Counted from the first letter of the stretch, positions 44,160 through 64,000 are shown. The stretch: 64,000 nucleotides of DNA from Bacteroidia bacterium (GCA_030424545.1 JAUHWL010000012.1:20315-84314); one strand, 5' to 3'. Numbers and translations: made by a program. The notes: generated by a model from the letters alone, not told the origin.

Positions 44160-44314
44160 ACTCAATACCCACATTTGGCTTAAATAATTATTTGATTTGT
44201 CTTGATGTCTAGGTAGTTCATAATCCTGGAATTTTAATATAACAAAAAAAAATATGGCTTTCTATTACCTTGTGTTGTCTATTTTGAAAATCTAAAATCA
44301 ATAGACTTAAAATT

Positions 44315-45646: not shown

Positions 45647-45798
45647 ACAGATTCTGAGAAGTTTTTTGTATCAGTAGATCAATTAAATGCGCATCTATTG
45701 TCCTGAAACAGTCGAAAGTTTCCATGGGGTTTTACAGAGTAGTGAATATCTATGCCGCTCAAACCTTATAGATAAATTTTGATTAAAACCATTTTCTC

Positions 45799-46230
45799 AT
45801 GAAGAATCTAATTTTAGCCATTGTAGCTATTGTGTTTTTGCATATAAATCTAAAAGCTCAAGTACAGGATACATTTCACTTTGCTGTAGAATTAATTAAC
45901 CCTGTCGTCAGCAGCAATGGAGATACTTCATATACTTTCAAATGCGTCATTGATGCTGATGATAGTTTGCAAGTTTCAGCTGTACAATTTGATATTGGAA
46001 CATATCCCGGAGATAATAGTGTTGCCAGTCAGCTATTTGTAGTTGGTCAAAATTATGGGTTACCCAACGGATATTCCGTAACTACCGCCACAAATGAAAT
46101 AACACTAGGGCTAGGAATCTTAGATGTGGGGTTATATCACTACAAAGTTCGGTTGCAGTTTTTAAATGGTAGCAATTCTCGTGATTTAGTTTACAATGCC
46201 GCAACTGGGCAATACACATTTTTGCCATGA
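45799..46230 (+). CDS. small secreted protein
   Basis: Signal peptide MKNLILAIVAIVFLHINLKAQ. Overlaps the next gene by 4 nt, typical of an operon. Confidence 0.5.
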   Translation: MKNLILAIVAIVFLHINLKAQVQDTFHFAVELINPVVSSNGDTSYTFKCVIDADDSLQVSAVQFDIGTYPGDNSVASQLFVVGQNYGLPNGYSVTTATNEITLGLGILDVGLYHYKVRLQFLNGSNSRDLVYNAATGQYTFLP

Positions 46231-47159
46231 AAAAAGTTGTCTTTATCATAGTTTCAATTTGGGTGGTACTAAGTGTAAAAGGCCAAGTTCCCATCAATCA
46301 AAAAACTGTTACGTTATCTCCCTCAAAGGATGCAATGGTTTGGTTAAAACACGGGGATGATGTGTTTAAAAATACGAACTATGGGTTGAATGATCATTTG
46401 AGAATAATTGCAGGTACACATGGAGGGGCATTGTCATTTTATCGCACATTCATGGAGTTTGATTTGTCAAGCATTCCTCAAAATGCAGTTGTAACCGATG
46501 TGAAACTGTATTTGTACGCGCAGGGCGACCATTCTCAAACGAGTGGAAGCAATGAAAGCCGGTTATATGCGCTTAGTACAAGTTGGTCTGAAAGTACAAT
46601 AACATGGGAGAACTCGCCCAAGGAAGGTGATGCCGATGGTTCAAGTTTGCTAATTCCAGCAAGTAATACAGGAGGAGTTAATGATCCAAATAAAGATTAC
46701 ATCGTTGATGTTACCGAATTTTTCAATGAATACAGGACCAGCAACGCATTTTCATACTTCATTAAGTTAGAAACAGAGGTAAAGTATAGAAAATTGACAT
46801 TTTATTCAAAAGACTATGCCACCGTTTCTAAAAGGCCAAAATTGGAAGTTACATATACAGTTCCATTTGTAGAGCTATTGCCAGAGCTTTCAAGCGATTT
46901 TATAAAGCTTAAAGGTGATGTTCTTTATATTAAGTATGATGAAGAGGAGGTTCCATCTAGCATATTAAACTATAGAATTTTAGATTTTTTTCAGGATGAA
47001 TTATCGGGTTTGCCTACTATATCAAGTGTTTTACCAGGCCATAATCTAATAGCGATAGACTTAGCGAGTGTTAGCTTGAGTAATGGGGAATTTTACATTT
47101 TAGAGGTAACAGATTCTCATGGTGAGAAAAAATATTTACGATTTAAAAAAATCATTTAG
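46227..47159 (+). CDS. secreted protein with SW-E-TW-N-P motif (possible DNRLRE-type domain)
   Basis: Signal peptide plus LYALSTSWSESTITWENSPKEG. Family assignment is tentative. Confidence 0.45.
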   Translation: MKKVVFIIVSIWVVLSVKGQVPINQKTVTLSPSKDAMVWLKHGDDVFKNTNYGLNDHLRIIAGTHGGALSFYRTFMEFDLSSIPQNAVVTDVKLYLYAQGDHSQTSGSNESRLYALSTSWSESTITWENSPKEGDADGSSLLIPASNTGGVNDPNKDYIVDVTEFFNEYRTSNAFSYFIKLETEVKYRKLTFYSKDYATVSKRPKLEVTYTVPFVELLPELSSDFIKLKGDVLYIKYDEEEVPSSILNYRILDFFQDELSGLPTISSVLPGHNLIAIDLASVSLSNGEFYILEVTDSHGEKKYLRFKKII

Positions 47160-47163
47160 CAGT

Positions 47164-47688
47164 ATGAAAATTTCACACATAGTCTTAGGCGTATTGATTG
47201 GTGTTGCGCTCACTTTATCAGGTGTTGCTATGTATAAAGCAACAACCGTCTCAGAGGTGATGTATGTTGACGTTCCCAAACTTTTCAACTCATTTGATTT
47301 AAAGAAGGATCTTAGTGTAAAGTTAGAAGGAGTCATGACGAGGAGAAATGAAATAATAGACAGTCTTCAAACCGAGCTTAAATTGCTAGAAAACAATCTT
47401 AGACATGAACAAGGCAGTGATCAGATAATGCAGGCTTATATAAAAAAGAAAGAAGAATTGGCTGTACATCAAAACAGGTTTGCAGAGCTAAACGCACAAG
47501 ATGCGCAAAAATATGACGAGCAGATTTATACTCAAATCAACCAATATATATCAGAGTATGGAAAAGAACAGAAATGCAGATTTATCCTTGGGGCTAACGG
47601 AAATGGCTCTATGCTCTATGCCAATCAGGACAACGATATTACTGATGAAGTCATAGCCTATGCGAATTTTAAATTTAATGGAGAATGA
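47164..47688 (+). CDS. OmpH/Skp-like periplasmic chaperone
   Basis: N-terminal TM/signal (MKISHIVLGVLIGVALTLSG), then a long coiled-coil region and a C-terminal KCRFILGANGNGSMLYANQD resembling the OmpH C-terminus. Start chosen at 47164 so the gene does not overlap its upstream neighbour. Confidence 0.55.
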   Translation: MKISHIVLGVLIGVALTLSGVAMYKATTVSEVMYVDVPKLFNSFDLKKDLSVKLEGVMTRRNEIIDSLQTELKLLENNLRHEQGSDQIMQAYIKKKEELAVHQNRFAELNAQDAQKYDEQIYTQINQYISEYGKEQKCRFILGANGNGSMLYANQDNDITDEVIAYANFKFNGE

Positions 47689-48245
47689 AACGTCTATTAG
47701 TTATGTTTTTGGTTGTTCAACTTCTTGCTTGCAGTCAATCTGATAAACCTGTTAGTGATGTTGAGTATTTGGCTTGGATGGAAAATGAAGAAAATGGTTT
47801 CTTTCAACAGAAAACGATTGAAAACATAACCTTTAGCTTATTCAGGCAAACCTCTACCTATAGAACATTAAAATCAACAGATGAGCAGCTAGGAGAGCAG
47901 TTTGTTCTGCGCATAAGCCCAAAAGAGCGAAACGCTCAAAATGTATTAGAGCAACATGCCACAAGTACTGAAGAGTATTTTAGTTTACTTCAATACTTCA
48001 ATACCGCATTTAGAACTCAAATTGAACTTGTTGATTTAGAAAATAGCACAGCATTGCCCATTGCATACATGAACATTCCTAATTATAGGACTGCCAATTA
48101 TTTAGAGTTCGTTTTTGCGTTTAATCAATTGCCACTTGAAAGCGAGTTCAAAATAGTCATAAATGACAATGTATTTGATTCAGGTCCAGTAGTATTTCGT
48201 TTTAAAAACACAACCCCGCCTTACTTAATCGCCAACGCAAAATGA
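47685..48245 (+). CDS. lipoprotein
   Basis: Lipobox LLAC-S (MKRLLVMFLVVQLLACSQ). Its stop overlaps the start of the SpvB-domain gene. Confidence 0.55.
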   Translation: MKRLLVMFLVVQLLACSQSDKPVSDVEYLAWMENEENGFFQQKTIENITFSLFRQTSTYRTLKSTDEQLGEQFVLRISPKERNAQNVLEQHATSTEEYFSLLQYFNTAFRTQIELVDLENSTALPIAYMNIPNYRTANYLEFVFAFNQLPLESEFKIVINDNVFDSGPVVFRFKNTTPPYLIANAK

Positions 48246-51200
48246 ATATGATTTCAAAAATTAGAAAAGGAAAATTAATACGTCTGTTAGCCGCATTTAT
48301 TGCCATAAATATGCTAGTAGAGATAGTGAGTCCGACAACTGCATTTGCACTCACAACTGGCCCGTCTCAGCCTGAAGTACAGTCATTTGAGCCAGTGAGC
48401 ACAAGTGATATGGTTAATTTATTTTCTGGAGATTTTACTTATAATATTCCACTTTTTGAATTACCCGGTCCAGATGGAGGGTATCCATTTAATTTAGCTT
48501 ACCACTCAGGCATCGGCATGGAGCAAGAAGCATCATGGGTTGGATTGGGATGGAATATTAATCCAGGAGCACTGACCCGACAGATGCGAGGTGTACCCGA
48601 TGAGTTTAAAGGTGATGAGTACAAGTATGAGATGGATATGAAGTCATCTCAAACATTTGGAATCAATGCTTCAGCCAGTATGGAAATTTGGGGGTCAGAT
48701 TTAAGTAAGGCTACAGGAGGAGAAGGAAATGGAGCCTTATCTCTTTCAACAAGTCTTTATTATAACAACTATAGAGGATTTGGGTATTCCCTTGGTTCAG
48801 GGGTTAGTTTTAGAGCAGCGCACACTTCCATTGGATTGAATATGGATTCACAAGGAGGGACATCAGTGAGTATGGACTTCAGTGCTTCGCATGAACTGAG
48901 TTCCAAAAGTAATACGAGCATGAATGTAGGTGTTGGAATAAGTCTTAGTTCAAAAGCAGGTTTACAGGGAAGTTTGAGCTCATCATTAACAAAAAAATCC
49001 ACATTGACAGGGGAGAACGCAGCTGGAAAGAAGATTACTAATGATGTCACTAAATCATTAGGAACTAGTTCAACATTAAGCAGTGCTACGTTAGCTTATT
49101 CAAGTTATAACCCAATGGCTACAAGAGCGAATCATTTAAATGTAAGTTTCAGGACAGGGGGTGATTTGGCTGGAGCATTTACCAATTTTTCGATAGGAGG
49201 TTTTTTTAATACTACATATGCAAAAGATAAAAACTCTTCAAGAAAAGCCTACGGATTATTTTATGCACAGAAAAGAACAAAAGATGGCTTACAAGATTTT
49301 AATCGAGAGCGCGAAAAATCAGTGCACAGAGACGATAAAACATTTCCAATTCCTGTATCTACGCCAGACTTTTATTCGTTTACAGGGCAAGGAATAGGAG
49401 GAATGTTCCGCACGTTCAGGTCAGATATAGGAAATTTTCACGACCCATATACTAAATCAACTACAGATGGCGGGAGTTTTGGTTTTGAAGTAGGCCCAGG
49501 ACAACCTAACCATATTGGAGTTACGGGCACATATACTCATGGGCAAAGTGAAGTAGGAAAATGGAATGTAAATGGTGGCGCATATGATTTCAACAATTAT
49601 GGAGAAGAAAGAAATGATAAAGAGATTTCTTGGTTTGCTTTGAATGGAGAGATGGTTGCCATGGAGAAAGATGAATTAGATTGGATTGGTGGAGAAAAAG
49701 CTGTGACAGCAAAAATGCAGAAAAAAGGCTCAACTGAATATGTACCTGTTGCGAACACATTTATTGATAAATCGAAAAATCAAATTACGCTATCCAATCA
49801 AAACAGGCAAGAAGCAGGCTTCAACAAAAGGAAACGCAGAGGAACATTGATTCAACAAGTAACCAATGGATTGTTGCTTGATGGAAACAATGAATTAATG
49901 TCAGAGTACAAAGTGGGCTATTATAGTAGCTCAGTTGATGTTTCAGATGCGTTAGATGTCTTGGCCGCTACAGAAACATCTTATTTAAGAGGGACTAAAA
50001 AGTCGCATCACTTTGCGGGTTTTTCAGTTCACCAACCCAATGGCCAGCGCTACGTTTATGGCATTCCCGCTTATAATAATAAACAAATAGAAAGTTCATT
50101 TAGTGTTCCAGATGAGGATGTTGATTGTATACCAAGAGTAGATGTGCCTATAGATGGTAGTTCTTTGAAATATAAACATAACCTGACCAATGAGTTTTTG
50201 ATGCGCACGGAAATTCCGGAATATGCACATTCATACTTGCTAACAGGTATTTTAGGAAATGACTATATCGATGTGTTAGACGATGGGATAACTGATGATG
50301 ATTATGGTTATTGGGTAAAATTCAACTACGCAAAAATTCATGACAATTTTAACTGGCGTATGCCCTTTAAAGGTGCTCGATACAATAAAGGGAGCTACTC
50401 CCTAAAAGAAGACAATAAAGGAAGTTTTATTTATGGAGAAAAAGAGATCTGGTACTTAACTTCAGTAGAGACCAGAACGCACGTTGCCGTTTTCGAATTA
50501 AACGATCGCATGGATGGCATAGAGGCCCCAGGGGAACTAGCGGGATTAAGTGCTTCTTTATCTGGGTTGAGCAAGCTAAAAAAAATAAAGAGCATAAAGC
50601 TATACTCCAAGTTAGCATATCAAAATGCTGTTTCTCAAAGTACGCTATCATCGCTAAACCCTATTCAAACCATTCATTTTGAGTATGATTATTCGTTATG
50701 TGAAGGAGTAGAGAATAATAATGGTCAAACCGACCCAAATGATGGAGACCCTATTAGCAATGATGGAGGAAAACTAACACTTAAAAAGGTGTACATGACC
50801 TATGAAGGAAATCAACGCGGAGCGCTCAGTCCATATGAATTCAACTATAGCAATGTAAATCCAGACTATGATGAGTTTGCCATGGATAGGTGGGGAAACT
50901 ATAAACAAAGCAACAATGAGGGAGATTATTGTTCAAATATTGACATGCCTTATGTCAGCCAGTATGATGTGAGTACAGGATATACAAAAACAGAGTTGGA
51001 AAACTTTAGAGAAAATGAAGTAGATGACTATGCCAATGCATGGCATTTAAATGAAATCATAACCCCCACAGGAGGTAAAATATCAATCGAATATGAGAGT
51101 GATGATTACAGCTACGTTCAGCACCGCAAGGCAACACAGATGTTTCAAATAAACGGTTTAAAAAAGGACGCCAATGATGGTTTAACTACTTATACATACG

Positions 51201-54200
51201 AATCAAACCAAATAAACAACCGTGTAGAATTTAATTTAGAAGTTCCTATAGCAGCCGATATATCATATTATGCAGATAAATACCAAGGTATTTCTGACCC
51301 AGATGACGTATTAGAACAACACTATTTAAAAGGGTTGGAAAGACGTGGAGAACACATAGTATATTTTAAAACCTACGCTAATTTAAGAGATAATTTGTGG
51401 GATTATGTAAATGGATATGCAAAAGTAGTTGACTGGGGAGTAACGGGAGAAACAGCTGTAAAAAATATAAATGGCAGTAACCTGACCGCTTATACAAAAG
51501 GGTATTTAGTATTGGAAGATGTTGAGGGTTATAACCCGTTTGCTGCGGCAGTTTTCCAGCATATGCGCACAAATGAACCCATATTGCTCAATTATAATAC
51601 AGCAATTAACGGAGAGCCAGGTACTTCGGATTTTGAAAAGGCAGCTCGAGTAAAAAGCTTGCTTAGTTTCATCACTGAAATTCCGAAAATGTTTACCAAG
51701 TTTCGTAATTTCTGTAGAATGAAAGGATTTGGAAACAAGATTGACCCCGCAAAAACGGTCATCAAACTCACAAGTCCAGATGGCGTGAAATATGGTGGCG
51801 GCACTCGCGTAAAAGCGATAAGAATGAGTGACGAGTTTCCAGTAAATGGATCTTCAGCAGAATATGGACAAGTGTATTCTTACACGATGAATGATCCAAA
51901 GAATCCAGGCTTAACCATTAGTTCTGGAGTAGCTAGTTATGAGCCACAAATAGGAGGAGATGAAAATGCATTACGCTATGCTGAGAGTTTTTATACAGAA
52001 GGAACAGGTAAAAATACTTCAAACCAGCGATATGTAGAAATGCCAATCAATGAATCCTATTTTCCAGGTGCTTCAGTAGGCTATGAACAAGTAGAAGTGA
52101 TGAGTTTGAACACAGCTAATGTAGTTGATGGCCAAACTACGAATGTGGGAGATCCAACAGGAGTAAGTGTTCACAAATTTTATACAGCGCGTGAGTTTCC
52201 GACAATGGTGGAAAAAACAAATCGAACCGAAAACACTGGCAAAGCAAGAAGATTATGGATTCCAATTCCATTTATTGGGCAAATAGAAACCAATAGGATG
52301 CACGCTTCTCAAGGATATGCCGTACAAACCAATGATATGCATGGCAAACAAAAAAGCATTAGCAACTACGGGATAAGTAAGGCGGGTAACATAGTGTGGG
52401 AAGCTGCAATAAGTAAAGTAGAATATGACTATAAAAAGAAACTTATACTCTATGATGAAACAGCGGTATATAAACTTGAGAATAAGGTAAATACTATCCG
52501 CATTGTTGGTGCGGGAGATCATTATTTTGATCACGTACAAGATGAAATGTTGCTAGGTGTTCAATACGAATTCTTTTCGGATCAGCGTTGGTCTAAGTCA
52601 TATTCAAATATGGGAGGATTAGAGTTTAATACAGAGATTTTAACTGTTTATCCCATTCCAATTCCTTGGCCAAGCGTAAATTCCAGTACCAATGAACTCG
52701 GGCTTTGGATTACCAATAAAGTTATTCATCGCTCGGGGATTCAGCACAAAACAGTGGCCACTGATGGTCAAAGTACGGTAACAACAGAAAACCTAGCCTT
52801 TGACGCTTATACAGGTAAACCACTCTATACACGAACTAAAAACAATTGGGATAATAATGTGTACGGGTTGCAAGATGTTTATAATTACCCAGCAGTGTCA
52901 AATTTAGGATATCAATTTATTAGTGGGTTGCAAACGGTAGTGGGGCCAGGAAGTAATGACGTAAGTGTTGACCTCATGCAAATCACAGAAACGGGAAAAG
53001 AGCTTTATCCCGGAGATGAACTGATCTTGATCGATGAAAGTGGGAATAGATATAAAGCCACAGTTGTGCATGATTTAAGTATGCAATATGCAACTCAACA
53101 TGCAGATGAGGGGTCTTATTTAGAAGTAGGAAGTAGATTAATCTATGGGGAAAATTTACCTGTAAGTCCATCAGGAGAATACAATATAACCGTTGTACGG
53201 TCAGGTCACAGAAATATATTAAACCTACCTGCTCATGGTCTTACAGCATTGTCAGATCCTTTAAATTCGGATAACAGGATAGTAGGGAATTTAGATGATG
53301 AGTTTACAGGAATAAGAAATGTGCTCAATGCTAGTGCGGTTAATTACACCGATAAATGGAGCAAATTAAATGAAGACAATAATCCATATAAAAATGGCTT
53401 GAGAGGCATATTGCGGAAACAAAATGATCTTTTTTATGCAGCAAATCGCAAGCAAAGTTCTGGCTTGGTTTTAGGGCAAGATGGGATATATCAAGACGAT
53501 CAAGGAGGAGTTAACTATTATTATCCTGCCATATTACCATGGAACTTTTATGATGGTGACCCTATGGTGCTAGGTATGGATTATGCCACATCTACCAATA
53601 AAGACAGTAAAGATACATGGTATTATGGTTCTACTACCACACAGTTTGATGCCTACGGAAATGAAATTGAAAGTACTGATCCTTTAGGAATATTTAGTAG
53701 TGCGAAATATGGTTATAAAGGTTCATTGCCCATTTGGGTAGCGGCTAACGCATACCAAAAAGAAGTGCTTTTTGATGGTTTTGAGACCATTGATGAAACG
53801 GGCTTACAGGCAGACAACGGTGAATCATATAACCCGCTTGACGAGACTTTTATCGTAGATGAAGAAGCACATACTGGAAAAAGGAGTTTGCGTGTTCAGT
53901 CACCAACTTTGGATGTGCGATCAGATTTAGAGTTAGAAGGTGAAAAAGAATATGTTATTAGCGCTTGGGTGAAAGCAGATGAAACTGATTTTACTTATAA
54001 CCATGAAGGTGGTGACAACATTTCTATAGAAGTCCGCTTTTACGATCAAAACAGAACGACCATACTAGGTTCGGTTGTGGCTATCCCTGTTGGTGAAGTG
54101 ATTGAAGGTTGGCAACAAGTTGCTTTACAATTTGAGACCCCAAATGATCCAGCATTTGCAAAGACCGATTTCTATTTCTATACGGGTAACCAATATGCAC

Positions 54201-54424
54201 ATATGTGGGTAGACGATTTGCGCATTTTTCCTGCGAACGGAAACATGCAAAGTTATGTCTATGATGCAAACAATTACAGATTACAAGCCACATTGGATCA
54301 AAACAACTTTGCATCATTTTATTACTACGATGAGGCGGGTAACCTCTATTTAGTGAAAAAAGAAACCGAGCGAGGCATCTTCACTATTTCAGAAAGCACA
54401 AGCCATAAACAAGAAACGAATTAA
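48242..54424 (+). CDS. Giant SpvB/TcaC-N-terminal-domain protein (Tc toxin TcB-like)
   Basis: Residues ~60-125 (FSGDFTYNIPLFELPGPDGGYPFNLAYHSGIGMEQEASWVGLGWNINPGALTRQMRGVPDEF) match the SpvB N-terminal domain signature LPxGxxGxxPxLxLxYxSGxGNGxxGxGWxL...I.R.T..G.P. An S/T/G-rich low-complexity region follows, then a long beta-rich body. Confidence 0.75.
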   Translation: MNMISKIRKGKLIRLLAAFIAINMLVEIVSPTTAFALTTGPSQPEVQSFEPVSTSDMVNLFSGDFTYNIPLFELPGPDGGYPFNLAYHSGIGMEQEASWVGLGWNINPGALTRQMRGVPDEFKGDEYKYEMDMKSSQTFGINASASMEIWGSDLSKATGGEGNGALSLSTSLYYNNYRGFGYSLGSGVSFRAAHTSIGLNMDSQGGTSVSMDFSASHELSSKSNTSMNVGVGISLSSKAGLQGSLSSSLTKKSTLTGENAAGKKITNDVTKSLGTSSTLSSATLAYSSYNPMATRANHLNVSFRTGGDLAGAFTNFSIGGFFNTTYAKDKNSSRKAYGLFYAQKRTKDGLQDFNREREKSVHRDDKTFPIPVSTPDFYSFTGQGIGGMFRTFRSDIGNFHDPYTKSTTDGGSFGFEVGPGQPNHIGVTGTYTHGQSEVGKWNVNGGAYDFNNYGEERNDKEISWFALNGEMVAMEKDELDWIGGEKAVTAKMQKKGSTEYVPVANTFIDKSKNQITLSNQNRQEAGFNKRKRRGTLIQQVTNGLLLDGNNELMSEYKVGYYSSSVDVSDALDVLAATETSYLRGTKKSHHFAGFSVHQPNGQRYVYGIPAYNNKQIESSFSVPDEDVDCIPRVDVPIDGSSLKYKHNLTNEFLMRTEIPEYAHSYLLTGILGNDYIDVLDDGITDDDYGYWVKFNYAKIHDNFNWRMPFKGARYNKGSYSLKEDNKGSFIYGEKEIWYLTSVETRTHVAVFELNDRMDGIEAPGELAGLSASLSGLSKLKKIKSIKLYSKLAYQNAVSQSTLSSLNPIQTIHFEYDYSLCEGVENNNGQTDPNDGDPISNDGGKLTLKKVYMTYEGNQRGALSPYEFNYSNVNPDYDEFAMDRWGNYKQSNNEGDYCSNIDMPYVSQYDVSTGYTKTELENFRENEVDDYANAWHLNEIITPTGGKISIEYESDDYSYVQHRKATQMFQINGLKKDANDGLTTYTYESNQINNRVEFNLEVPIAADISYYADKYQGISDPDDVLEQHYLKGLERRGEHIVYFKTYANLRDNLWDYVNGYAKVVDWGVTGETAVKNINGSNLTAYTKGYLVLEDVEGYNPFAAAVFQHMRTNEPILLNYNTAINGEPGTSDFEKAARVKSLLSFITEIPKMFTKFRNFCRMKGFGNKIDPAKTVIKLTSPDGVKYGGGTRVKAIRMSDEFPVNGSSAEYGQVYSYTMNDPKNPGLTISSGVASYEPQIGGDENALRYAESFYTEGTGKNTSNQRYVEMPINESYFPGASVGYEQVEVMSLNTANVVDGQTTNVGDPTGVSVHKFYTAREFPTMVEKTNRTENTGKARRLWIPIPFIGQIETNRMHASQGYAVQTNDMHGKQKSISNYGISKAGNIVWEAAISKVEYDYKKKLILYDETAVYKLENKVNTIRIVGAGDHYFDHVQDEMLLGVQYEFFSDQRWSKSYSNMGGLEFNTEILTVYPIPIPWPSVNSSTNELGLWITNKVIHRSGIQHKTVATDGQSTVTTENLAFDAYTGKPLYTRTKNNWDNNVYGLQDVYNYPAVSNLGYQFISGLQTVVGPGSNDVSVDLMQITETGKELYPGDELILIDESGNRYKATVVHDLSMQYATQHADEGSYLEVGSRLIYGENLPVSPSGEYNITVVRSGHRNILNLPAHGLTALSDPLNSDNRIVGNLDDEFTGIRNVLNASAVNYTDKWSKLNEDNNPYKNGLRGILRKQNDLFYAANRKQSSGLVLGQDGIYQDDQGGVNYYYPAILPWNFYDGDPMVLGMDYATSTNKDSKDTWYYGSTTTQFDAYGNEIESTDPLGIFSSAKYGYKGSLPIWVAANAYQKEVLFDGFETIDETGLQADNGESYNPLDETFIVDEEAHTGKRSLRVQSPTLDVRSDLELEGEKEYVISAWVKADETDFTYNHEGGDNISIEVRFYDQNRTTILGSVVAIPVGEVIEGWQQVALQFETPNDPAFAKTDFYFYTGNQYAHMWVDDLRIFPANGNMQSYVYDANNYRLQATLDQNNFASFYYYDEAGNLYLVKKETERGIFTISESTSHKQETN

Positions 54425-54425
54425 T

Positions 54426-55124
54426 ATGAAAAGGCTACAATCACATATGTTGGCGCTGCTATGGGCAATAATTAGTCTGTTATATGTTCCAGAGGCTGAT
54501 GCGCAAGACTTTAAAGCTGATATGCAATATTTAACTGAGCATGTTATGGCAAATAAGAGTGTTAACATCAAAGCAAGCATAGAGATATTTGATGCCAACG
54601 ATAGGCCAATTCAACAGCAAACATATAGCCTGCTAAAAAGAGATCAAGAATTCAAATTTACCACCAACTCTATGGCAATGCTCTATAACAAAGATGTAAT
54701 GCTCAGCATAAATCATGTAGATAAGAAGATATTTATTTCTCAGAGAAGTGCGGAAAAAGAACAAAAACAGCATATCCCAGAATGGGATATGGGGATTGAT
54801 AGTTTGGTGCACACCCCTTTTCCGAGTGTAGTTTATCATCACACAAGTATTGGGCATACCTATGTTTTAACGCCTTCAGCCGAAACAGGCATAAAAGAAA
54901 TTGTTATCGTGTTAAGTAATAACAAACGGAGTATCCATTCTGTAGAATATTTCTTCAAACCAGATGGAGTCTATGAGTATAGCAAGATTGTTATTGAATA
55001 TGAAAAATTTGATACACGCCCCATAGCGGCAAAAGAATTTTCCATCGCCAATTATGTGCTTCAGAAAAAGGGAAAGCAAGTTCCGGCAAGTGCTTATGGA
55101 GACTATGAAATCACCCTGTTTTAA
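54426..55124 (+). CDS. secreted hypothetical protein between the TcB-like and RHS genes
   Basis: Signal peptide MKRLQSHMLALLWAIISLLYVPEADAQ. Begins 1 nt after the upstream stop. Confidence 0.5.
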   Translation: MKRLQSHMLALLWAIISLLYVPEADAQDFKADMQYLTEHVMANKSVNIKASIEIFDANDRPIQQQTYSLLKRDQEFKFTTNSMAMLYNKDVMLSINHVDKKIFISQRSAEKEQKQHIPEWDMGIDSLVHTPFPSVVYHHTSIGHTYVLTPSAETGIKEIVIVLSNNKRSIHSVEYFFKPDGVYEYSKIVIEYEKFDTRPIAAKEFSIANYVLQKKGKQVPASAYGDYEITLF

Positions 55125-55143
55125 TCGCCAAACCATTTGATTT

Positions 55144-58100
55144 ATGCAATTTTTAAAAAACCTTCTTAGCGCTGCCTTTTTACTTTTTAGCAGCACCGTA
55201 CTTGCTCAACAAACCACTTTGTTGCAAACTGATAAAGCGGATTTGAGCATAAATAAAGTGATTCGGTTGAAGGATGCTGTTGAAGATCCATCCTCAGGAG
55301 GATATATTTTACGCAAACATAAAGTGCGCTTAGAGTATACCAGAAGCAATCGTACCGATGTGTATAGCGGGAGTGATTGGACATATCAAATAGACTATAA
55401 AATATATAATTACGGTTCTGGTGTTTCAGGGTCTACATATTCTTTAAAAGTAGCCTTTAAGCCATCAGAAGAAAATTTTATCTACGAGGCCATACGTGTA
55501 CACGATCAGCTTGCCACAGAAGATTTAGGCGTTAAAATAGTGGGGATATCAACTACAGGCACTGTGCCAGATGACATTGTACTTTCAGTAGAAACAGAAA
55601 CAGAAGTACATTATTTTTTATCTCCTGCTGCACAAGGGTATGTGCATTTCAACAACACCGCAAAAGAAGTGCGCTGGAAAACAGTCGAAGGAGCGAAGCA
55701 ATACGATGTAGAATGGGTGTTTGTAGATGACGAATCCGCAGCGGCATATACAGCGTTTATTGGAGCAACTGGAAATGCCAAACCATTTGCTTTTAAAGAG
55801 CCAGTGAGAGTGCGTACCGCAGGCAATAGTTTAAGATTAGAGCCTACATATCCTTCAGGCACACTTTACTTTCGTGTGCGTCCCGTAGGAGTGTGGGTAG
55901 TGGGGGTTAATGGGAATTATAGCCACATAAAAACGGGGGCTTGGGGATATACCAAAAGTCCAACTGATGGTACGGTTGCTAAACACATCATCAGCACCTC
56001 CTTTGAAGAAGACAAAAACTGGCAAATGGTGGTTACCTATGCCGAAGAAGGTAAAAACAAGCGAGTTGTTAGCTACTATGACGGGAGTTTGCGCAACCGC
56101 CAAAGCCTGACCAACCTTTCTACACAAGATGTTACATTGGCGGCAGAACAAGTGTATGATTTTGAAGGGCGCCCAGCAGTTAGCATTTTACCAGCACCAC
56201 TTAGCAATAACACATTTGGTTATAAAAGCAATTTAAACAAAAAGGGTAGCAATGCCTTTTCTGCTAGTGATTTTGATGGTAAAAATGGAAGTGCATTGAA
56301 TACCAGTGCAACAGGAAGTGCTGCACAATATTATTCAAACAACAACCTTTACAAAAACCAGCAAACCAATGGCAATTTCATTCCAGATGCTGAAGGTTAT
56401 GTGTATGCACAAAATGTATACATGCGCGATAATACAGGACGAATGGCTATTTCAGGAGGAGTTGGGAGTACCTTTAAAATTGGAGGCGATCATGAAACGA
56501 AATATTACTACGGAACCCCCTCAGCAGTAGAGCTCTATCGCTTATTTGGAACAAATGTTGGGGAAGCTAGTCATTATAAAAAAAACATGGTGATGGATCC
56601 GAATGGTCAACTTAGCGTGAGCTACCTTGATCAAGAAGGGCGCACCATTGCAACGGCATTGGCAGGGCTTAGCCCAGATAATTTGTATGCTTTGGAAAGC
56701 AATGTATCAGACGAAAGCATTCAAATAGATTTATTGGCAGGCAACAATGGTTGGGATTTGGCCAATGGAGTAGCCACAAGTGTGCATCGTCAACTAAACG
56801 TACTCCCAAATAATGAGTTTACTTTTGAGTACGACATAACAGGAGCGCTTTATGAAGTAAGTGTTACAGGGCTTGATCCTAACGAACCGCAAAACTCTAC
56901 GGACTTTTGCATGGATTGCGAATACGCATTAACAATTTCCATCACCGATCCGGATGGCAACAATGTGCCGATGGAAGTGACAAGCGGCCCAAGTGACAAA
57001 CTTGGAACCCATAATGTGCCATACCAGGACACAATTCGCATGACGGGAGATCCGGATTGCTCTAGCTCATCAACCTATAACCCTGAAATGGCTCCCGTTT
57101 ATTTTACGGCAGATTTTGAGGACATAGGTACATATACCATTACCCGACAGCTAAAAGTTATTATAAATGAAGCAGATTTTATGAGCCAAGCAGCGGATGC
57201 GTTAGAAGATTTAGGGCTTAGTGAGCAAGGCTTAATTGATCAATATCTGCAAAACGTAGATACGGTAGATTGCGATTTTACGTGCTACGACCGCGCCAAG
57301 ACGAAGGCAAAATTGATGTATCCGGGCTATAACAGCACACAAATTGAAAACGTGATTCCAGCAATAATGGACACCATGTGTGTGCGCTTGATGAATCAGG
57401 CAATGGGGGGAGGCGAAGCAGAGTGCGAAAGCCTTTTGGGTGCAATGATTACAGACGTTTCACCAGGTGGGTGGATGTACACTAGCGATGCCACCAGTGA
57501 TTTTTGGACTTCTATTGACGTGTCATCAATCAACACCTTATTAGGCACCAGTTTTACATTGGCCGATTTGCGCGACCCTACACAATGGTATAGTGAAATC
57601 AGTGATGAATTGGTAAAAAAACACCGAGAGTATTGCCACTACCTGCAATGCTCTACTTATGCTGAGTCTAAAGGTTATCAAAACAACATGGCCATGGGGG
57701 CAAATGATTGGGCAGAAGCTAAAACTCAGGGCTTTGATGACCCATTTAATGAAAAAGGAACTAGCAATGTTATCGATAAAGACCCTATTTCAGATGTTGA
57801 TTTGGGACAATCATTTTCTTTAACAGCAAATGATGGTGTCAGTTCTTCATTTTCGGCTACAGATCATCACTCTGATGCCATTGAATTTTTAATGATGCAC
57901 GGCTATCCTGGCATGTCTGGAAAAGCAAGCTTTTCCCTCGGTTTAGACCAATTGCAAGGCACTACTGTGAGTGGTATGGTCTATCCGTCTGATGATCAGG
58001 GAAAATGGTCGCTTTTCATGTCTGCCTACAACGCGGCATGGTATCAGGTGTACGAAGCGGTAAAAGCGGCAAGCAGCTGCGTATATTATCATGATGGCAA

Positions 58101-61100
58101 TCAGATTTTTAACGAACACCCAAATTTATCTGACCCTAGTGTTCAAAGTGGTATATATGCAGGTAGTGCCAATTTCTGGAATAGTACGAGTTTAGAGTGT
58201 GAAGACATTTGTGCCCAAAACGCCAGTGCTTGGCTAGATCAACTCAATACAGAAACTTCGGGGGATTTGTTTGCAGGGTTATTAACCTGCGATAGCGCCC
58301 AGGTTTACACTTTATTGTACAACTATTGTATTGGCGATTGTGGTACCAACAACCCGTTTGGTATGCTGCGTACAGGCACCACGGCATATAGTAATTTGGT
58401 AACTTCTTTGAGCAACTGCAGCTTGACTCTAGACAGCCTCACTACTGTGGCTAGTTATATAGATAGTTGTGAAAATGAAATTACCACGCATTATCGGGTT
58501 TCAGATTGTATGGAGAATATTTTTAAGGGATTAAACAGTGTATTGCCAATACCTACCTCAAACTTCGTTCAAGCCCCACCAACATCTCATGCAATGTGGG
58601 CTTGTATCAATTCATATTATCAATATAAACCTAGCGTAAGAGTTCAACAAACGCACAACTATGAACAATTTGGACTAGGAGATAGTACGGTGAGTAATTG
58701 TGTTTTGTTTAGTCTGTGGACAGATGCAGGAAGTAATGTTGATCTAAACAATGTGGCTCAAATTTTATCTTCCAAAGTAAATTTAACTGGTTCTACATCT
58801 GCTCCATCTTCCCCTGGCTGGACTATAACATATTCGGGCATATCCGTAAAAGTGAGGTATATCAATAATTCTATTGAGGAGGTATTTCTGTATACAGGAA
58901 GCGAATGGGCTGTTTGTACTTCAATTTTGGCTTATGAATCTTATGAAGTGCCCTGTCAGCCTTACATAGACTCTGCCTTTGCTGCCAATTTAGATACCAA
59001 TCGTTTCAACTTTCAAACCGCCCGAGAAGATTGTATAGAGCTGATAAAAGCCCGTGCCGAGCAAAATGCAAAAGACGCCTGGCAAGATTTATTGCAAAAT
59101 GCCGCCAGCCAACTTTTGGCGGAGTACAACGAAAACTGCTTGCAAAATTCAGCAGAATCATTCATTGCCAATTATGATTTGCGCGAGTACCACTACACGC
59201 TTTATTATTATGACCAGGCAGGAAACCTGGTGCAAACCGTGCCGCCAGAAGGTGTAGATATTTTGTCTAGTGCAGCTTTTCCTAATGGCATCTACAACCA
59301 AAGTAGCATGCCCGCACACAGGCTAAAAACACAATACCAATACAATAGCTTAAACCAGTTGGTGTGGCAAAGCACACCAGATGGTGGCGAGACCGACTTT
59401 TGGTACAACAACATCGGCCAATTGCGCTTTTCACAAAATGCAAAGCAAGCACCCGGCAACTACTTTAGCTACACAAAATATGATGCACTGGGGCGCATCA
59501 TAGAGGTAGGTGAACATGATAAAGACTTACTAAATACATTGACCTTTACCGTGAATGCCCATACTCCAGATTGGCCGGCTACCAAAGGGTGGGAAGTAAC
59601 ACAAACCCATTATGACCAGGTAGCCTCAGCCGCAGTGCAAGCTCAGTTTAATCAGCCACAGAGCCATTTGCGCAACCGCGTAGCCACTACAGAATATATT
59701 GAAAACACAAAAGACGTACTCAGCCAAAACAACAAAATTACAGCTGCCACGCATTACAGCTATGATGTGCACGGCAACGTAAAGGAGTTGGTGCAACAGC
59801 AAAACTATTGGGTAGCCACGCCAAACCGCTACAAGCAAATGGCGTATGATTATGATTTGGTAAGTGGCAATGTAAAAGAAGTAGCCTACCAAAAAGGGCA
59901 TTATGACCAGTTTTACCACCGCTATCGTTATGATGCAGACAACCGCATTACCCGTATGCTAACCAGCCGCGATGGTGAACGTTGGGAAACCGATGCCCGT
60001 TATGAATACTACTTGCATGGCCCACTGGCACGAACTGTGATTGGCGAAGACAATGTGCAAGGCGTTGATTATGCCTACACCCTGCAAGGGTGGCTCAAAG
60101 CCGTAAATGGCATTACCGTAAACGCATCAGAAGATATGGGGAAAGACGGCAACAGCACCGCCCATCGCTGGAATGCCGAAGATGCCTTTGGGTTTAATCT
60201 TGGCTACTACCAAAGCAATAACCAGGCAGACTACCTAGCCATTGGCAGCACAAGCGATCATATTGTAGCCATTACCGCAGGTAACCTTACACAAAGTAAC
60301 GGCACCAAGCACCGCCTATACAATGGCAACATAGGCTTTATGGCCACAAGGTTGCCGATGAGCTACGGCACCCATGTGCGCATGGGCATGTACCAATATG
60401 ACCAGCTAAACCGCCTAAAAGAGAGTAAAAGCGACTATGTATATGATGGATTTTACCTAACCACCGCAGGCAATCATTTTAAAACATTGTATGATTACGA
60501 TGCCAATGGAAACATTGAAAACCTGAAACGCTTTGACGGTGGTGGAAGCCAATCTGACGATATTAATTATACCTACAACAAAACTTCCGGAGAGCTAGAC
60601 AACAACAAGCTTGCTAGCGTATCAGACAGTTATAATGGCCCGGGCGATGACATACACGGCACCCATAGCTACACGTATGACAATATTGGCAACCTAATAG
60701 CCGATAGTGGCGAAGACATTGGCAGTATAGATTGGACCGTTTATGGCAAAATAAAAAGCGTAAACCGCAATGGGGGCAACCTGCCCAACTTAGCCTTTGG
60801 CTATGGCCCCGATGGCAACCGAATGTATAAAATAACAAAAGGCAACGGCACCACCCCCGGCAACGTACACACTTGGGAAGGCCAATGGTACGTGCGCGAT
60901 GCCAGCGGCAACGTAATGGCCATCTACAACGAAGCCTTTTCCAACATAGGCGAAGACGCCTATAAAAGCACACTCACCCTGAGCGAGCTACCCCTCTACG
61001 GCAGCAGCCGTGTAGGGTTGCAAGAGGGGCAAACTACCGATACTGAAAACGCATATTTTTCAGGCACCAGCACCGCCACAGGTTTTACACCTGGCACCGC

Positions 61101-62598
61101 TTATGTGCTGCATGACGTTTTTACAACAGGCGATGATTATGATGTAACCAACGAAAATGGGGGCGATGTAACCCTTGGTGGAGGCAGTGACCATACCCTA
61201 ACGGTAGGCGCAACCTACGAGAAAATTTACTTTACTACCTCGGGCGAAATAGAAGTGCCGGGCGATATGTTCGAAACAGATGAAACGGGCAACTACATCC
61301 CACAGGGTGGAGAAATCACCATCACCCTTTACACCGGAGGCGAGTTTGAGTTGTTAGACCCTATCTTTTTTGAAATAAAAAAAGTATTTAGTGGATTAAC
61401 CTTGCTAGGCAAAGGCGTACAAGTAACTCGCGGTGTGAATGAGGAAGAAATATTTAGTGAGCGAGAGTTACTAAACAAAAAATATGAACTCTCAAACCAT
61501 TTAGGGAATGTTTTAACGGTTGTGTCAGATTTAAAACTTGGTCAAGACAATAATAGTGACGATATTGCGGAGGCATATTTGGCAGACGTTCTTACATATG
61601 CTGACTATTATCCATTTGGGATGACCATGCCGGGGCGGTTTGCGAATCCGGGAAGTTACAGGTATGGCGGTGCAGGTGGCCAAGAATCAGATGTGGAAAT
61701 TTCAGGAAGTTTTGGAAATCATTACACGGCTGAATATTGGGAGTTGGATGCTCGAGTTGGGCGCAGATGGAACAGAGACCCAGTAGTGAAATCATGGCAA
61801 AGTCCTTATGCTGTATTTGATAATAATCCAATTTATTACAATGATCCATCTGGTGCAGAAAGTACCCCCTGTGATGATTGCGCAGAACATGTTTTATTGG
61901 ACGAGGTAGTAGTTACAGGAGAAGCTTCGAATAAAGTAGGGAAAGTGTTTAAGGAAATCGGAAGCTTTTTTGATAAAATAGGAGAAAGCTTAAAAGAGGC
62001 AGGGACTCAAGTAGCTATATTTACGGCTGGAGTTGTAAATGCATGGGGCACTAATCAAGTTATGGGCGTAGGTCGTAGAAACCCACAAGAGTTTGGACCC
62101 TATTCGTCAACTGCGCAAGCTGGACAAACTACTGGTGATGTTATATCTATTTTTACTGGTGCCGTAGAGGTATTTGCAGGTGGGGGTACTGAAGTTGTTT
62201 CCCTAGGCACTACGAGTGCGGTTTCTATTCCTCTTGCACTGCATGGTGTATCAGTTATGGGTACAGCAACGGCAAACATGATTAAGGATGGAGTAGAGCG
62301 TACTCATGATAATATAAATGGCAATCCTTCTTCTAATGGAAGTAGTGGTGGTGGAAGTAAAAAGCCAACTCCAGATACTAATCCAAGTGATTTTAAAAAG
62401 CTTCCAGGAAACCAAGGTTATGTGCATAAGAAAACGGGTGAAATTTACAAGAAAAGTCATACAAGTCATGGTAATAAGGGCAATACAGGAAAGCAATGGA
62501 AAGTATGGCCAAAGGGAACCAAAGATTTTGGAAAAAACTCCAAAAAATCTGGAAAGAGAACAACTGTTGATGGTGATGGAAATATAATAGGTAATTAA
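55144..62598 (+). CDS. RHS/YD-repeat protein with RHS core and C-terminal polymorphic toxin domain (TcC-like)
   Basis: Signal peptide. Many YD repeats (YTLYYYDQAGNLVQT, YQYNSLNQLVWQSTPDGGETDFWYNNIGQLRF, YDYDANGNIENL, YTYDNIGNLIADSG, YGPDGNRMYK). RHS core end motif PIYYNDPSGAE (PxxxxDPxG), followed by a ~245-aa non-repeat tail. Confidence 0.85.
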   Translation: MQFLKNLLSAAFLLFSSTVLAQQTTLLQTDKADLSINKVIRLKDAVEDPSSGGYILRKHKVRLEYTRSNRTDVYSGSDWTYQIDYKIYNYGSGVSGSTYSLKVAFKPSEENFIYEAIRVHDQLATEDLGVKIVGISTTGTVPDDIVLSVETETEVHYFLSPAAQGYVHFNNTAKEVRWKTVEGAKQYDVEWVFVDDESAAAYTAFIGATGNAKPFAFKEPVRVRTAGNSLRLEPTYPSGTLYFRVRPVGVWVVGVNGNYSHIKTGAWGYTKSPTDGTVAKHIISTSFEEDKNWQMVVTYAEEGKNKRVVSYYDGSLRNRQSLTNLSTQDVTLAAEQVYDFEGRPAVSILPAPLSNNTFGYKSNLNKKGSNAFSASDFDGKNGSALNTSATGSAAQYYSNNNLYKNQQTNGNFIPDAEGYVYAQNVYMRDNTGRMAISGGVGSTFKIGGDHETKYYYGTPSAVELYRLFGTNVGEASHYKKNMVMDPNGQLSVSYLDQEGRTIATALAGLSPDNLYALESNVSDESIQIDLLAGNNGWDLANGVATSVHRQLNVLPNNEFTFEYDITGALYEVSVTGLDPNEPQNSTDFCMDCEYALTISITDPDGNNVPMEVTSGPSDKLGTHNVPYQDTIRMTGDPDCSSSSTYNPEMAPVYFTADFEDIGTYTITRQLKVIINEADFMSQAADALEDLGLSEQGLIDQYLQNVDTVDCDFTCYDRAKTKAKLMYPGYNSTQIENVIPAIMDTMCVRLMNQAMGGGEAECESLLGAMITDVSPGGWMYTSDATSDFWTSIDVSSINTLLGTSFTLADLRDPTQWYSEISDELVKKHREYCHYLQCSTYAESKGYQNNMAMGANDWAEAKTQGFDDPFNEKGTSNVIDKDPISDVDLGQSFSLTANDGVSSSFSATDHHSDAIEFLMMHGYPGMSGKASFSLGLDQLQGTTVSGMVYPSDDQGKWSLFMSAYNAAWYQVYEAVKAASSCVYYHDGNQIFNEHPNLSDPSVQSGIYAGSANFWNSTSLECEDICAQNASAWLDQLNTETSGDLFAGLLTCDSAQVYTLLYNYCIGDCGTNNPFGMLRTGTTAYSNLVTSLSNCSLTLDSLTTVASYIDSCENEITTHYRVSDCMENIFKGLNSVLPIPTSNFVQAPPTSHAMWACINSYYQYKPSVRVQQTHNYEQFGLGDSTVSNCVLFSLWTDAGSNVDLNNVAQILSSKVNLTGSTSAPSSPGWTITYSGISVKVRYINNSIEEVFLYTGSEWAVCTSILAYESYEVPCQPYIDSAFAANLDTNRFNFQTAREDCIELIKARAEQNAKDAWQDLLQNAASQLLAEYNENCLQNSAESFIANYDLREYHYTLYYYDQAGNLVQTVPPEGVDILSSAAFPNGIYNQSSMPAHRLKTQYQYNSLNQLVWQSTPDGGETDFWYNNIGQLRFSQNAKQAPGNYFSYTKYDALGRIIEVGEHDKDLLNTLTFTVNAHTPDWPATKGWEVTQTHYDQVASAAVQAQFNQPQSHLRNRVATTEYIENTKDVLSQNNKITAATHYSYDVHGNVKELVQQQNYWVATPNRYKQMAYDYDLVSGNVKEVAYQKGHYDQFYHRYRYDADNRITRMLTSRDGERWETDARYEYYLHGPLARTVIGEDNVQGVDYAYTLQGWLKAVNGITVNASEDMGKDGNSTAHRWNAEDAFGFNLGYYQSNNQADYLAIGSTSDHIVAITAGNLTQSNGTKHRLYNGNIGFMATRLPMSYGTHVRMGMYQYDQLNRLKESKSDYVYDGFYLTTAGNHFKTLYDYDANGNIENLKRFDGGGSQSDDINYTYNKTSGELDNNKLASVSDSYNGPGDDIHGTHSYTYDNIGNLIADSGEDIGSIDWTVYGKIKSVNRNGGNLPNLAFGYGPDGNRMYKITKGNGTTPGNVHTWEGQWYVRDASGNVMAIYNEAFSNIGEDAYKSTLTLSELPLYGSSRVGLQEGQTTDTENAYFSGTSTATGFTPGTAYVLHDVFTTGDDYDVTNENGGDVTLGGGSDHTLTVGATYEKIYFTTSGEIEVPGDMFETDETGNYIPQGGEITITLYTGGEFELLDPIFFEIKKVFSGLTLLGKGVQVTRGVNEEEIFSERELLNKKYELSNHLGNVLTVVSDLKLGQDNNSDDIAEAYLADVLTYADYYPFGMTMPGRFANPGSYRYGGAGGQESDVEISGSFGNHYTAEYWELDARVGRRWNRDPVVKSWQSPYAVFDNNPIYYNDPSGAESTPCDDCAEHVLLDEVVVTGEASNKVGKVFKEIGSFFDKIGESLKEAGTQVAIFTAGVVNAWGTNQVMGVGRRNPQEFGPYSSTAQAGQTTGDVISIFTGAVEVFAGGGTEVVSLGTTSAVSIPLALHGVSVMGTATANMIKDGVERTHDNINGNPSSNGSSGGGSKKPTPDTNPSDFKKLPGNQGYVHKKTGEIYKKSHTSHGNKGNTGKQWKVWPKGTKDFGKNSKKSGKRTTVDGDGNIIGN

Positions 62599-62601
62599 AT
62601 A

Positions 62602-62937
62602 ATGAAATTTGAAAAAATATATAGGGAATCTATTTCGTTTTGGCCAAATAGTATTGATTTATCAGACGGTAAGTTGATTGAGGAAACAAATGGATTTTAT
62701 TCAGAAAACTTATCTTCTGCATGGGATAAAGCAGAAGAATTGGCTTCTAACGAATGGCAATCCTTAATGGTTTGGACTTTTTATCAGGAGCTACACAAAA
62801 AGGCAGTTGAGAGCTTTAAGGCAAATAGATTTTATTTAAATATTGATTCTATTGATATGGCAATGCTTAAACAGTCTTACTTAAATGCTTTAAAAGAAGA
62901 GGGGTATGAAAAAATGCTAAATCAATTGGAAGTATGA
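62602..62937 (+). CDS. candidate cognate immunity protein
   Basis: 111-aa cytoplasmic ORF 4 nt downstream of the RHS stop, the canonical rhs immunity position. Confidence 0.5.
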   Translation: MKFEKIYRESISFWPNSIDLSDGKLIEETNGFYSENLSSAWDKAEELASNEWQSLMVWTFYQELHKKAVESFKANRFYLNIDSIDMAMLKQSYLNALKEEGYEKMLNQLEV

Positions 62938-63446
62938 AGTCGTTGTTATTCATATCCGTTTTGTCCCTATTATTAACCACCTCATGGGTAAAGTTTACAC
63001 CGGAGAGTGGTGATTATACATTAGAATTAAATGATAAGGCGAAATATCAGCAACGAGTTATTGAAGGAGGGTATGCAGATATATACACAATAGTGGAAAA
63101 TATTACATCCCAAGAAAATGAGTATTATATCATATCAGTTTCAAAGTTGAATGAAGAAGAGGAGTTTACTCTTGAAAAAATAGCGTCAAAAGTCTTTAAA
63201 GACAACTATCTATTGACCTGTGGTTGTGAAGTGGTTAATGAAAAAGAAGTACAGTATCAAAATTTTAAGGCGATTGAATATGATCTTAGAATTACAAAAA
63301 ATGACGGTTTTTTAGTTGGAAAATCAGTTCATATCCCTAAAGGAAGGATATTGTACAGTGTCAGTTTTATTACATCGGAAAAATTCTTGAATAGATTTAA
63401 ATCAGAATATCAACGAACCATAAATTCAGTACAGCTTTTAAAATAA
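62934..63446 (+). CDS. small secreted protein (second immunity candidate or accessory)
   Basis: Signal peptide MKSLLFISVLSLLLTTSW. Overlaps the previous gene by 4 nt. Confidence 0.45.
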   Translation: MKSLLFISVLSLLLTTSWVKFTPESGDYTLELNDKAKYQQRVIEGGYADIYTIVENITSQENEYYIISVSKLNEEEEFTLEKIASKVFKDNYLLTCGCEVVNEKEVQYQNFKAIEYDLRITKNDGFLVGKSVHIPKGRILYSVSFITSEKFLNRFKSEYQRTINSVQLLK

Positions 63447-63548
63447 TTAATGGCAATGTTGGTAGCGTCTCAAACATGTTAGCTTGTATGTTATGCTTTT
63501 TAACAGGCAGCTACCCGGCAAAAAATAGATTTAGCATAGAAAAGGAGA

Positions 63549-63579
63549 GGCAACGTAAAAGTTGCCTTTTTTATTTTTG
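63549..63579 (+). terminator. Intrinsic terminator
   Basis: GGCAAC-gtaaaa-GTTGCC hairpin followed by TTTTTTATTTTTG. Confidence 0.6.
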
Positions 63580-63587
63580 AATTAGAA

Positions 63588-64000
63588 ACCATCACCCTTT
63601 ACACCGGAGGCGAGTTTGAGTTGTTAGATCCTATCTTTTTTGAAATAAAAAAAGCATTTAGCGGATTAACCTTGCTAGGCAAAGGCGTACAAGTAACTCG
63701 CGGTGTAAATGAGGAAGAAATAGTGAGTGAGCGCGAATTATTAAACAAAAAGTACGAGTTTAGCAACCACTTAGGCAACGTACTTACTGTGACTAGCGAT
63801 TTAAAATTAGGATTAGATAATTACGGCAGCGATGGCATCGTGGATGCGTACAATGCAGATGTTCTTTCATATAGTGACTATTACCCAGGCGGGTCGTTGT
63901 TACCCGGAAGAAACGCCAACCCAGGAAGCTACAGACACGGCTATCAGGGAAGTGAAACCGATAATGAAATAACGGGTACTTCAGGAACTCATATTACAAC
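63588..64000 (+). pseudogene. Orphan rhs C-terminal cassette (promoterless 3' fragment with alternative toxin tip; partial at window end)
   Basis: Nucleotides 63588-~63720 are ~95% identical to 61318-61450 of the main RHS gene, then diverge progressively. Translation ITLYTGGEFELLDPIFFEIKKAFSGLTLLGKGVQVTRGVNEEEIVSERELL… is in frame with no start codon. Begins right after the terminator. Confidence 0.75.

Follow-up and report, generated by a model that had tools for sequence, protein, structure and literature searches.

An orphan rhs cassette behind a full-length Rhs gene in a Flavobacteriales bacterium: a probable recombination-accessible reservoir of toxin tips

The window, by which we mean the whole stretch of 64,000 nucleotides that was analysed, ends in an orphan rhs fragment that lies behind a full-length Rhs/YD-repeat gene and begins with a short patch nearly identical to a part of it. 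We read this orphan as a parked 3' part of an Rhs polymorphic-toxin gene that would act as a silent reservoir of tips accessible to recombination, and give this reading a probability of roughly 0.7. The orphan layout is already known from Dickeya, Yersinia and Salmonella, so that it is an ordinary finding, and the current picture of Rhs biology is unchanged by it. What differs here is the host lineage, the shortness of the patch, a boundary between constant and variable sequence that lies upstream of the core domain, and the apparent lack of linkage to a type VI secretion system (T6SS). The locus is also a clean example of an orphan cassette from a little-studied marine or freshwater lineage of Flavobacteriales (Crocinitomicaceae-like). 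The features concerned are:

55144-62598, plus strand: full-length main Rhs/YD-repeat gene of 2484 aa (from the ORF list and its translation)
61318-61450, plus strand: first copy of the patch, inside the main gene (aa 2059-2102), codon-aligned with the second copy
61606-61854, plus strand: core domain (RHS-associated) of the main gene, YYPFGM (aa 2155) through P-IYYN-DPSG
61855-62598, plus strand: presumed toxin, the last 247 aa encoded by the main gene (its C-terminal tip)
62602-62937, plus strand: small ORF of 111 aa, beginning 3 nt past the stop codon of the main gene, without a signal peptide
62934-63446, plus strand: small ORF of 170 aa, sharing 4 nt with the end of the 111 aa ORF and encoding an N-terminal signal peptide (MKSLLFISVLSLLLTTSW)
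63543-63572, plus strand: hairpin and T-run resembling an intrinsic terminator (from a terminator scan), closing the main cassette
63572-63579, plus strand: TATTTTTG, a match to TAnnTTTG (the Bacteroidota -7 box), candidate promoter
63588-63720, plus strand: second copy of the patch, at the 5' end of the orphan, the proposed recombination substrate together with 61318-61450
63588-64000, plus strand: orphan rhs fragment, 137 open codons without ATG, continuing past the end of the window

At its N-terminus the main protein has a leader resembling a signal peptide (MQFLKNLLSAAFLLFSSTVLAQQ). Ten YD-type motifs are found between aa 1354 and 1851, the Pfam family RHS_repeat is matched at 25.7 bits (cut-off 22), and the core domain closes with P-IYYN-DPSG (aa 2229-2237, nt 61828-61854) as its PxxxxDPxG motif. 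Judged by these repeats, the core domain, the motif, the small ORF directly downstream and a tip poorer in GC than the core, the gene belongs to the Rhs/YD-repeat polymorphic toxins. The TIGR03696 model aligns over positions 1-75 of 76, at 13.2 bits and thus below its cut-off of 32.5. When the whole main protein was compared with the PDB using phmmer, there were no matches. A profile of the core end in which both copies from the window were included does match solved structures, at the C-terminal end of the RHS cocoon: mosquito SGS1 (E = 9e-11), TcdB2-TccC3 (7e-6), YenC2 (1.7e-4) and RHS2 (1.6e-3).

The tip of the main gene has no Pfam match at E-values up to 10 and no meaningful match in NCBIfam or, with phmmer, in the PDB, and may be a candidate for an undescribed toxin domain. 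It contains a hydrophobic segment rich in glycine (…AIFTAGVVNAWG…SIFTGAVEVFAGGG…), followed by a lysine-rich C-terminal part of about 80 aa (…GYVHKKTGEIYKKSHTSHGNKGNTGKQWKVWPKG…TTVDGDGNIIGN). From its position, the 111 aa ORF is the putative cognate immunity gene, and the 170 aa ORF could be a second, an accessory or a left-over immunity gene; neither ORF has a meaningful match in Pfam (E up to 10), NCBIfam or the PDB. The GC content is 45-53% in the shell, falls to 33-44% in the region of the main tip and to 29-33% over the end of the tip and the small ORFs (32% in the 111 aa ORF), and is back up to 39-43% in the orphan, with 38% for the window as a whole. A shell with high GC content and a tip with low GC content are the classic composition pattern of Rhs genes.

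In the preliminary description of this DNA, the orphan was said to follow a terminator and to have no start codon, and both points hold. The hairpin before it folds as RNA at -17.4 kcal/mol (z = -5.4; none of 200 shuffled sequences was as stable) and ends 16 bases before 63588. An in-frame TAG is found at 63537-63539, and the 16 in-frame codons between this stop and 63588 include no ATG, GTG or TTG. From 63588 on, the frame is open for 137 codons to base 64000 with an ATG count of zero; read from the sequence, TTG codons are present in frame inside the orphan at 63621 and 63672, and a GTG at 63723. These codons are one argument for regarding the orphan as an independently expressed module, with a promoter of its own and an internal non-ATG start, that would function as an intracellular pair resembling a toxin-antitoxin system or as a driver of its immunity gene. 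The TAnnTTTG box, 9 nt upstream of the orphan, points the same way; the plus strand of 55144-64000 has just one other match to this motif, which is otherwise depleted in the window. Many cassettes of relatives start with an ATG near the start of the core, and there is a precedent in Salmonella, where an orphan has internal promoters and a CTG start and drives the immunity gene downstream (PMC7043789). However, the box overlaps the T-tail of the terminator and may be a chance match, the majority of the TAnnTTTG matches in the window are not located 5' of genes, and the absence of any ATG from 137 codons also argues against such a module, which we hold to be quite improbable. Across the window, 55 matches to TAnnTTTG were counted where 96.6 ± 9.4 were expected from dinucleotide-preserving shuffles, a depletion that fits selection against spurious promoters. 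A sigma-70 promoter scan, which is uninformative for Bacteroidota, found fewer sites than in shuffled sequences.

The patch itself had been described as a stretch of about 130 nt in which 63588-63720 is nearly identical to 61318-61450. Pairwise alignment of the orphan with the corresponding segment of the main gene bears this out, with 129 of 133 bases the same and divergence thereafter. The mismatches are at positions 63629, 63655, 63662 and 63707, leaving exact runs of 41, 25, 44 and 15 nt. No other direct repeat of 25 nt or longer is present within 46000-64000, and the two copies begin 2270 nt apart. A tblastn search of the whole 64 kb window with the core end of the main gene likewise finds these two copies and no more. 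Homology of the orphan begins at aa 2059 of the main gene, and the N-terminal region is absent. Its 5' edge is abrupt: the 141 bases before 63588, aligned with 1 kb before 61318, give a local score of 24, while shuffled controls give 18.5 ± 2.4 and reach at least 24 in 14 of 300 cases. As there is no significant similarity upstream of 63588, the second copy of the patch starts abruptly. A weak MAFFT match had hinted at hidden shell homology 5' of 63588; it was rejected because the local alignment is not significant when compared with shuffles.

The orphan thus consists of the patch (codons 1-44) and a diverged start of the core domain (NHLGNVL...YSDYYPGG...PGR...YRHGYQG). It had been described as continuing in frame off the end of the window, which it does, and its divergent part had been called a C-terminal sequence, a wording that has to be revised. 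Past the patch, the orphan can be aligned with the first part of the RHS-associated core domain (KYEFSNHLGNVL...YSDYYPGG...PGR...YRHGYQG), and by this alignment the stretch that was quoted as divergent (NHLGNVL...YSDYYPGG...YRHGYQGSETDNE) is to be read as the start of that domain and not as a tip. In the window the orphan ends about 45 codons short of the expected PxxxxDPxG motif. In an alignment of ten core ends (A3), made up of the copies in the window and those of relatives, the visible part of the orphan retains 24 of 24 positions that are invariant in the family.

Between orphan and main gene, divergence is distributed as a mosaic. Over codons 1-44, pS is 0.10 and pN is 0.01, whereas over codons 45-136 pS is 0.90, i.e. 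saturated, and pN is 0.24. The maximum chi-square method places a breakpoint near 63752, with a value that was reached in none of 2000 permutations, and divergence sets in about 125 codons upstream of PxxxxDPxG. This contrast in pS and pN means that the two core ends are old, have evolved separately under purifying selection, and are joined to a patch that was shared recently. A patch with 97% identity beside saturated synonymous sites is a clear footprint of recombination, and from the pattern of substitutions the event would have been either recombination or gene conversion at the 5' edge of the cassette, or integration of a cassette via the patch. That the whole 3' end was simply duplicated not long ago is excluded by the saturated synonymous divergence beyond the patch.

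The same observations bear on the view that the orphan is an inert relic, i.e. debris from the time when an incoming cassette displaced an older tip, which has never been reused and is decaying. The lack of a start codon, usable homology that is down to 133 nt, and the fact that recombination would take away the presumed immunity genes can all be read in this way. Clearly broken cassettes do exist in relatives, such as a frameshifted one in Wandonia haliotis (L003, 15930-17079) and a truncated one in L005 (714-962). On the other hand, the frame of the orphan is intact over its 137 codons, all 24 of the family-invariant residues are kept, the 97% patch next to saturated synonymous sites implies recent exchange with the main gene and not neglect, and arrays of intact cassettes recur in several genera. 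A relic is therefore considered unlikely, and a silent but reusable reservoir is the reading that we follow below.

Repeats are where assemblies fail, and mis-assembly of a collapsed or duplicated region could in principle have made this one. A de Bruijn graph with k=31 cannot tell on its own which of the two sequences entering the patch belongs to which of the two leaving it, and three of three Logan contigs break exactly there. One Logan contig from ERR3428543 equals window positions 44426-61347 with 0 mismatches and stops 30 nt into the main copy of the patch. A second contig from the same sample (L001) equals 61407-63617, again with 0 mismatches, starting 30 nt before the mismatch at 61437 and ending 30 nt into the orphan copy. 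A third (L002, from ERR3420974) terminates at the same base as L001, and the junction from terminator to patch has 0 mismatches in both. The exact 170 aa protein was found in two independent Logan assemblies, and there only in 2 kb contigs that end in the patch. Such breaks are the ones expected for a k=31 graph at a true repeat; a graph of this kind does not phase the patch, and a deleted locus together with an excised circle would give the same graph. The preliminary description had named an assembly artefact as something that would refute its reading, and the evidence goes against one, as the independent assemblies of ERR3428543 and ERR3420974 contain both patch junctions, from terminator to patch and from patch to main core, with 0 mismatches. 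Furthermore, the copies are two distinct sequences, with 4 differences over the 133 positions of the patch and saturated divergence beyond it, and the same layout is found in isolate genomes and MAGs of relatives. Since the junctions and the four differences between the copies are reproduced outside the source assembly, an artefact is very unlikely and for the most part already refuted. Other searches returned relatives: the orphan protein compared with genome contigs, among which the source genome is absent, found only relatives at up to 60% identity; a protein scan of metagenome contigs found distant relatives only; an exact 72-nt pattern had no match in metagenome contigs; and a set of 5.8 billion proteins held no identical protein, the best being 55% identical.

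The closest loci are those of Wandonia haliotis, Brumimicrobium, Fluviicola and other Flavobacteriales, and several of them carry cassettes in arrays. In Wandonia haliotis JCM 16083 (NZ_BAAAFH010000003.1, 723100-743324) there are five copies of the core end in 20 kb, 1.8-4.4 kb apart, and in Brumimicrobium sp. (CANNGT010000016.1) there are three, 2.2-2.4 kb apart. Two further loci, L007 and L008, have three core-end matches each, two of those in L008 lying inside its single full-length ORF. Most copies in relatives are short, 5'-truncated ORFs with varying truncation points, and full-length genes are in the minority. The cassettes are 45-58% identical to the core region of the main gene and exceed the TIGR03696 cut-off, with scores of 50.7 and 41 bits; YD repeats, too, are present in some of those that pass. 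Their tips after the core are 190-295 aa long and differ from cassette to cassette, including Ntox46, Peptidase_M91 and a lipase-like tip with HSMGG, and behind each tip there are one or two small ORFs, which often encode signal peptides. Between cassettes of one genome, identity over the 5' parts is 88-97%.

The arrays of Wandonia and Brumimicrobium, both members of the Crocinitomicaceae, are therefore close to the window in several respects: they belong to the same protein family, with 45-60% identity over the core end, their period of 1.8-4.4 kb compares with the 2270 bp spacing in the window, and they combine homogenised 5' segments with differing tips. They differ from the window in that many of their cassettes have an ATG near the start of the core and, in Brumimicrobium, a repeated non-coding leader in common. 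In both genera the switch to divergent sequence comes right after YSDYYP, some 55 codons downstream of the switch in the window. Taken together, the positions of the switch in the window, Wandonia and Brumimicrobium indicate that the exchangeable unit is most or all of the core domain. It seems that in the Rhs family of the window locus the whole core domain is swapped, and not just the tip after PxxxxDPxG.

A few other observations on these arrays can be added. In the Brumimicrobium locus L005, a repeat of about 63 nt (…GATTTAGCGCAGCTTCTCGTGGCCTTGGG…), which might be a small mobile or regulatory repeat, is present in six copies between and around the rhs cassettes, the weakest with 62% identity, at the following positions:

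562-624
2029-2091
2900-2962
5108-5170
5164-5226
8374-8436

Two cassettes of the same locus have in common a non-coding leader of about 150 nt, about 93% identical, 5' of the ATG. Between two rhs cassettes of L007 (4463-6586) there are three tandem units about 710 nt apart and 87-96% identical, which may be paralogous immunity genes. In Wandonia haliotis (L003, about 14190-14200) a run of N, representing an assembly gap, is located exactly at the 5' edge of a cassette; rhs cassette arrays break the assemblies of isolate genomes too.

The preliminary description had recognised the layout of an orphan cassette, and this is what is found: a 5'-truncated copy on the same strand, downstream of a full-length gene, its tip, two ORFs and a terminator. 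The best-studied parallel is Salmonella enterica Typhimurium LT2 (STM0291/STM0292), where Koskiniemi et al. (2014, PMC3967940) described a full-length rhs gene with tip and immunity gene and, behind it in the same orientation, an orphan that lacks its 5' part, with a near-identical stretch of the core common to both. In that strain the common stretch is 522 bp long at 95% identity, and recombination within it fuses the shell of the main rhs to the orphan tip (PMC3967940); in the window the homology is 133 nt at 97%, and the corresponding switch of toxins across the patch is inferred from the Salmonella case. Divergence in the window begins about 125 codons before PxxxxDPxG, so that in contrast to Salmonella the swapped unit would be the whole core domain. 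The host is also different, belonging to the Flavobacteriales, its main protein carries a leader of the Sec type, and T6SS genes were not seen in the vicinity. Orphan rhs-CT/rhsI modules were described even earlier, for rhsC of Dickeya dadantii 3937 and for Yersinia pseudotuberculosis (Poole et al. 2011, PMC3150448). These too are tandem orphans downstream of a main rhs gene that retain a variable amount of upstream core, and each is paired with a small immunity ORF, with tips that are unrelated between modules. Unlike the window, these loci are linked to VgrG and T6SS, and activities of toxin and immunity protein were put to experimental test there, while tip and immunity gene of the orphan in the window are predicted.

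In a similar manner, the cdiA-CT/cdiI arrays and the mafB-CT cassettes of Neisseria (Jamet & Nassif 2015, PMC4436062) are silent 3' cassettes with short 5' homology that constitute a reservoir of diversity. The scaffold is different in each case, being a two-partner-secretion filament in CdiA, the MafB scaffold in Neisseria, and the RHS cocoon in the window. The TcC components of Tc/ABC toxins (TccC3, YenC2) share with the window protein a homologous end of the cocoon (profile E-values from 7e-6 to 1.7e-4) and a hypervariable toxin after the core. The main protein of the window differs from TcC in its 2484 aa and the long non-RHS part at its N-terminus. Orphan arrays are not known from Tc loci.

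For the orphan as a reservoir, the following course of events is proposed. Beyond base 64000, and modelled on the relatives, the next 45 codons or so should bring the orphan to its own PxxxxDPxG motif, after which a tip of 190-295 aa representing a different toxin would follow, and then one or two small ORFs for immunity. Further cassettes are probably present beyond the window, a reasonable guess because relatives carry arrays of 3-5 cassettes. The 133-nt direct repeats are codon-aligned and flank a unit of 2270 bp that comprises the core end, tip, two small ORFs and terminator. RecA-type recombination between them would fuse the shell of the main gene in frame to the core end and tip of the orphan, and the crossover would delete or excise the 2270 bp main cassette. 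In the reverse reaction, i.e. the integration of a cassette circle, or by unequal crossing-over, the array could grow. An array of this kind would serve as a silent reservoir of alternative toxin tips, together with immunity genes that are expressed or can be expressed, for use in competition between bacteria. Recombination is expected to be rare because the homology covers only 133 nt, in which no exact run exceeds 44 nt and the next longest has 41 nt. Since both small ORFs would be deleted, the presumed immunity gene among them, a plain crossover should be selected against among kin unless the locus is duplicated first. For Salmonella, switching has been proposed to follow duplication, which keeps immunity to the main toxin (PMC3967940).

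A more far-reaching version, which we regard as a long shot, would have a self-contained cassette of about 2.2 kb (patch, core with autoprotease, tip, immunity gene and terminator) moving as a RecA-generated circle, much like an integron without an integrase. The Rhs machine supplied in this way would be exported by Sec, independent of T6SS, and paired with a partner of 2060 aa and LolA/Skp-like chaperones, and the box in the terminator tail would express the parked cassettes or their immunity genes.

The genes that such a version would draw on lie directly upstream. The Rhs gene is the last of a cluster on the same strand, which comprises before it:

46227-55124, plus strand: genes for a CBM96 protein (310 aa), an OmpH/Skp-like protein (189 aa), an unknown protein (186 aa), a protein of 2060 aa and a LolA3-family protein (232 aa)

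The LolA3-family protein scores 76 bits against a cut-off of 83. The 2060 aa protein matches DUF6531 at 17.2 bits, below the cut-off of 24.1, and has no meaningful match in the PDB; its N-terminus (LFSGDFTYNIPLFELPG...GLGWNI) carries a motif reminiscent of SpvB/TcB/DUF6531. PAAR, VgrG and Hcp were found neither in the main protein nor in the ORFs at 36018-55124, so that within the window the sequence offers nothing to suggest a T6SS-delivered Rhs effector. Homologues of the 2060 aa protein precede Rhs genes in Fluviicola (L008) and Winogradskyella (L011) as well, which suggests a Sec-dependent, Tc-like route of delivery without T6SS. How an Rhs protein with a signal peptide is delivered, together with a 2060 aa partner and LolA/Skp-like genes and without an obvious T6SS, is the more interesting question raised by the upstream region.

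Just upstream of the Rhs cluster, a tyrosine integrase gene is located at 42924-44159 on the plus strand (Phage_integrase with Arm-DNA-bind_5, the type found in mobile elements of Bacteroidota), in a segment (42000-46000) with a GC content of 31-33%. The Rhs locus may lie next to or inside an integrated element; the window contains no tRNA genes that would mark an island border. Further upstream, two large genes for surface proteins are encoded on the opposite strand (36018-41986, minus strand). One of these proteins has 1205 aa with cadherin-like and Big_9 domains, and the other has 775 aa and a T9SS C-terminal sorting domain that scores 21.8 bits, below the threshold of 27.
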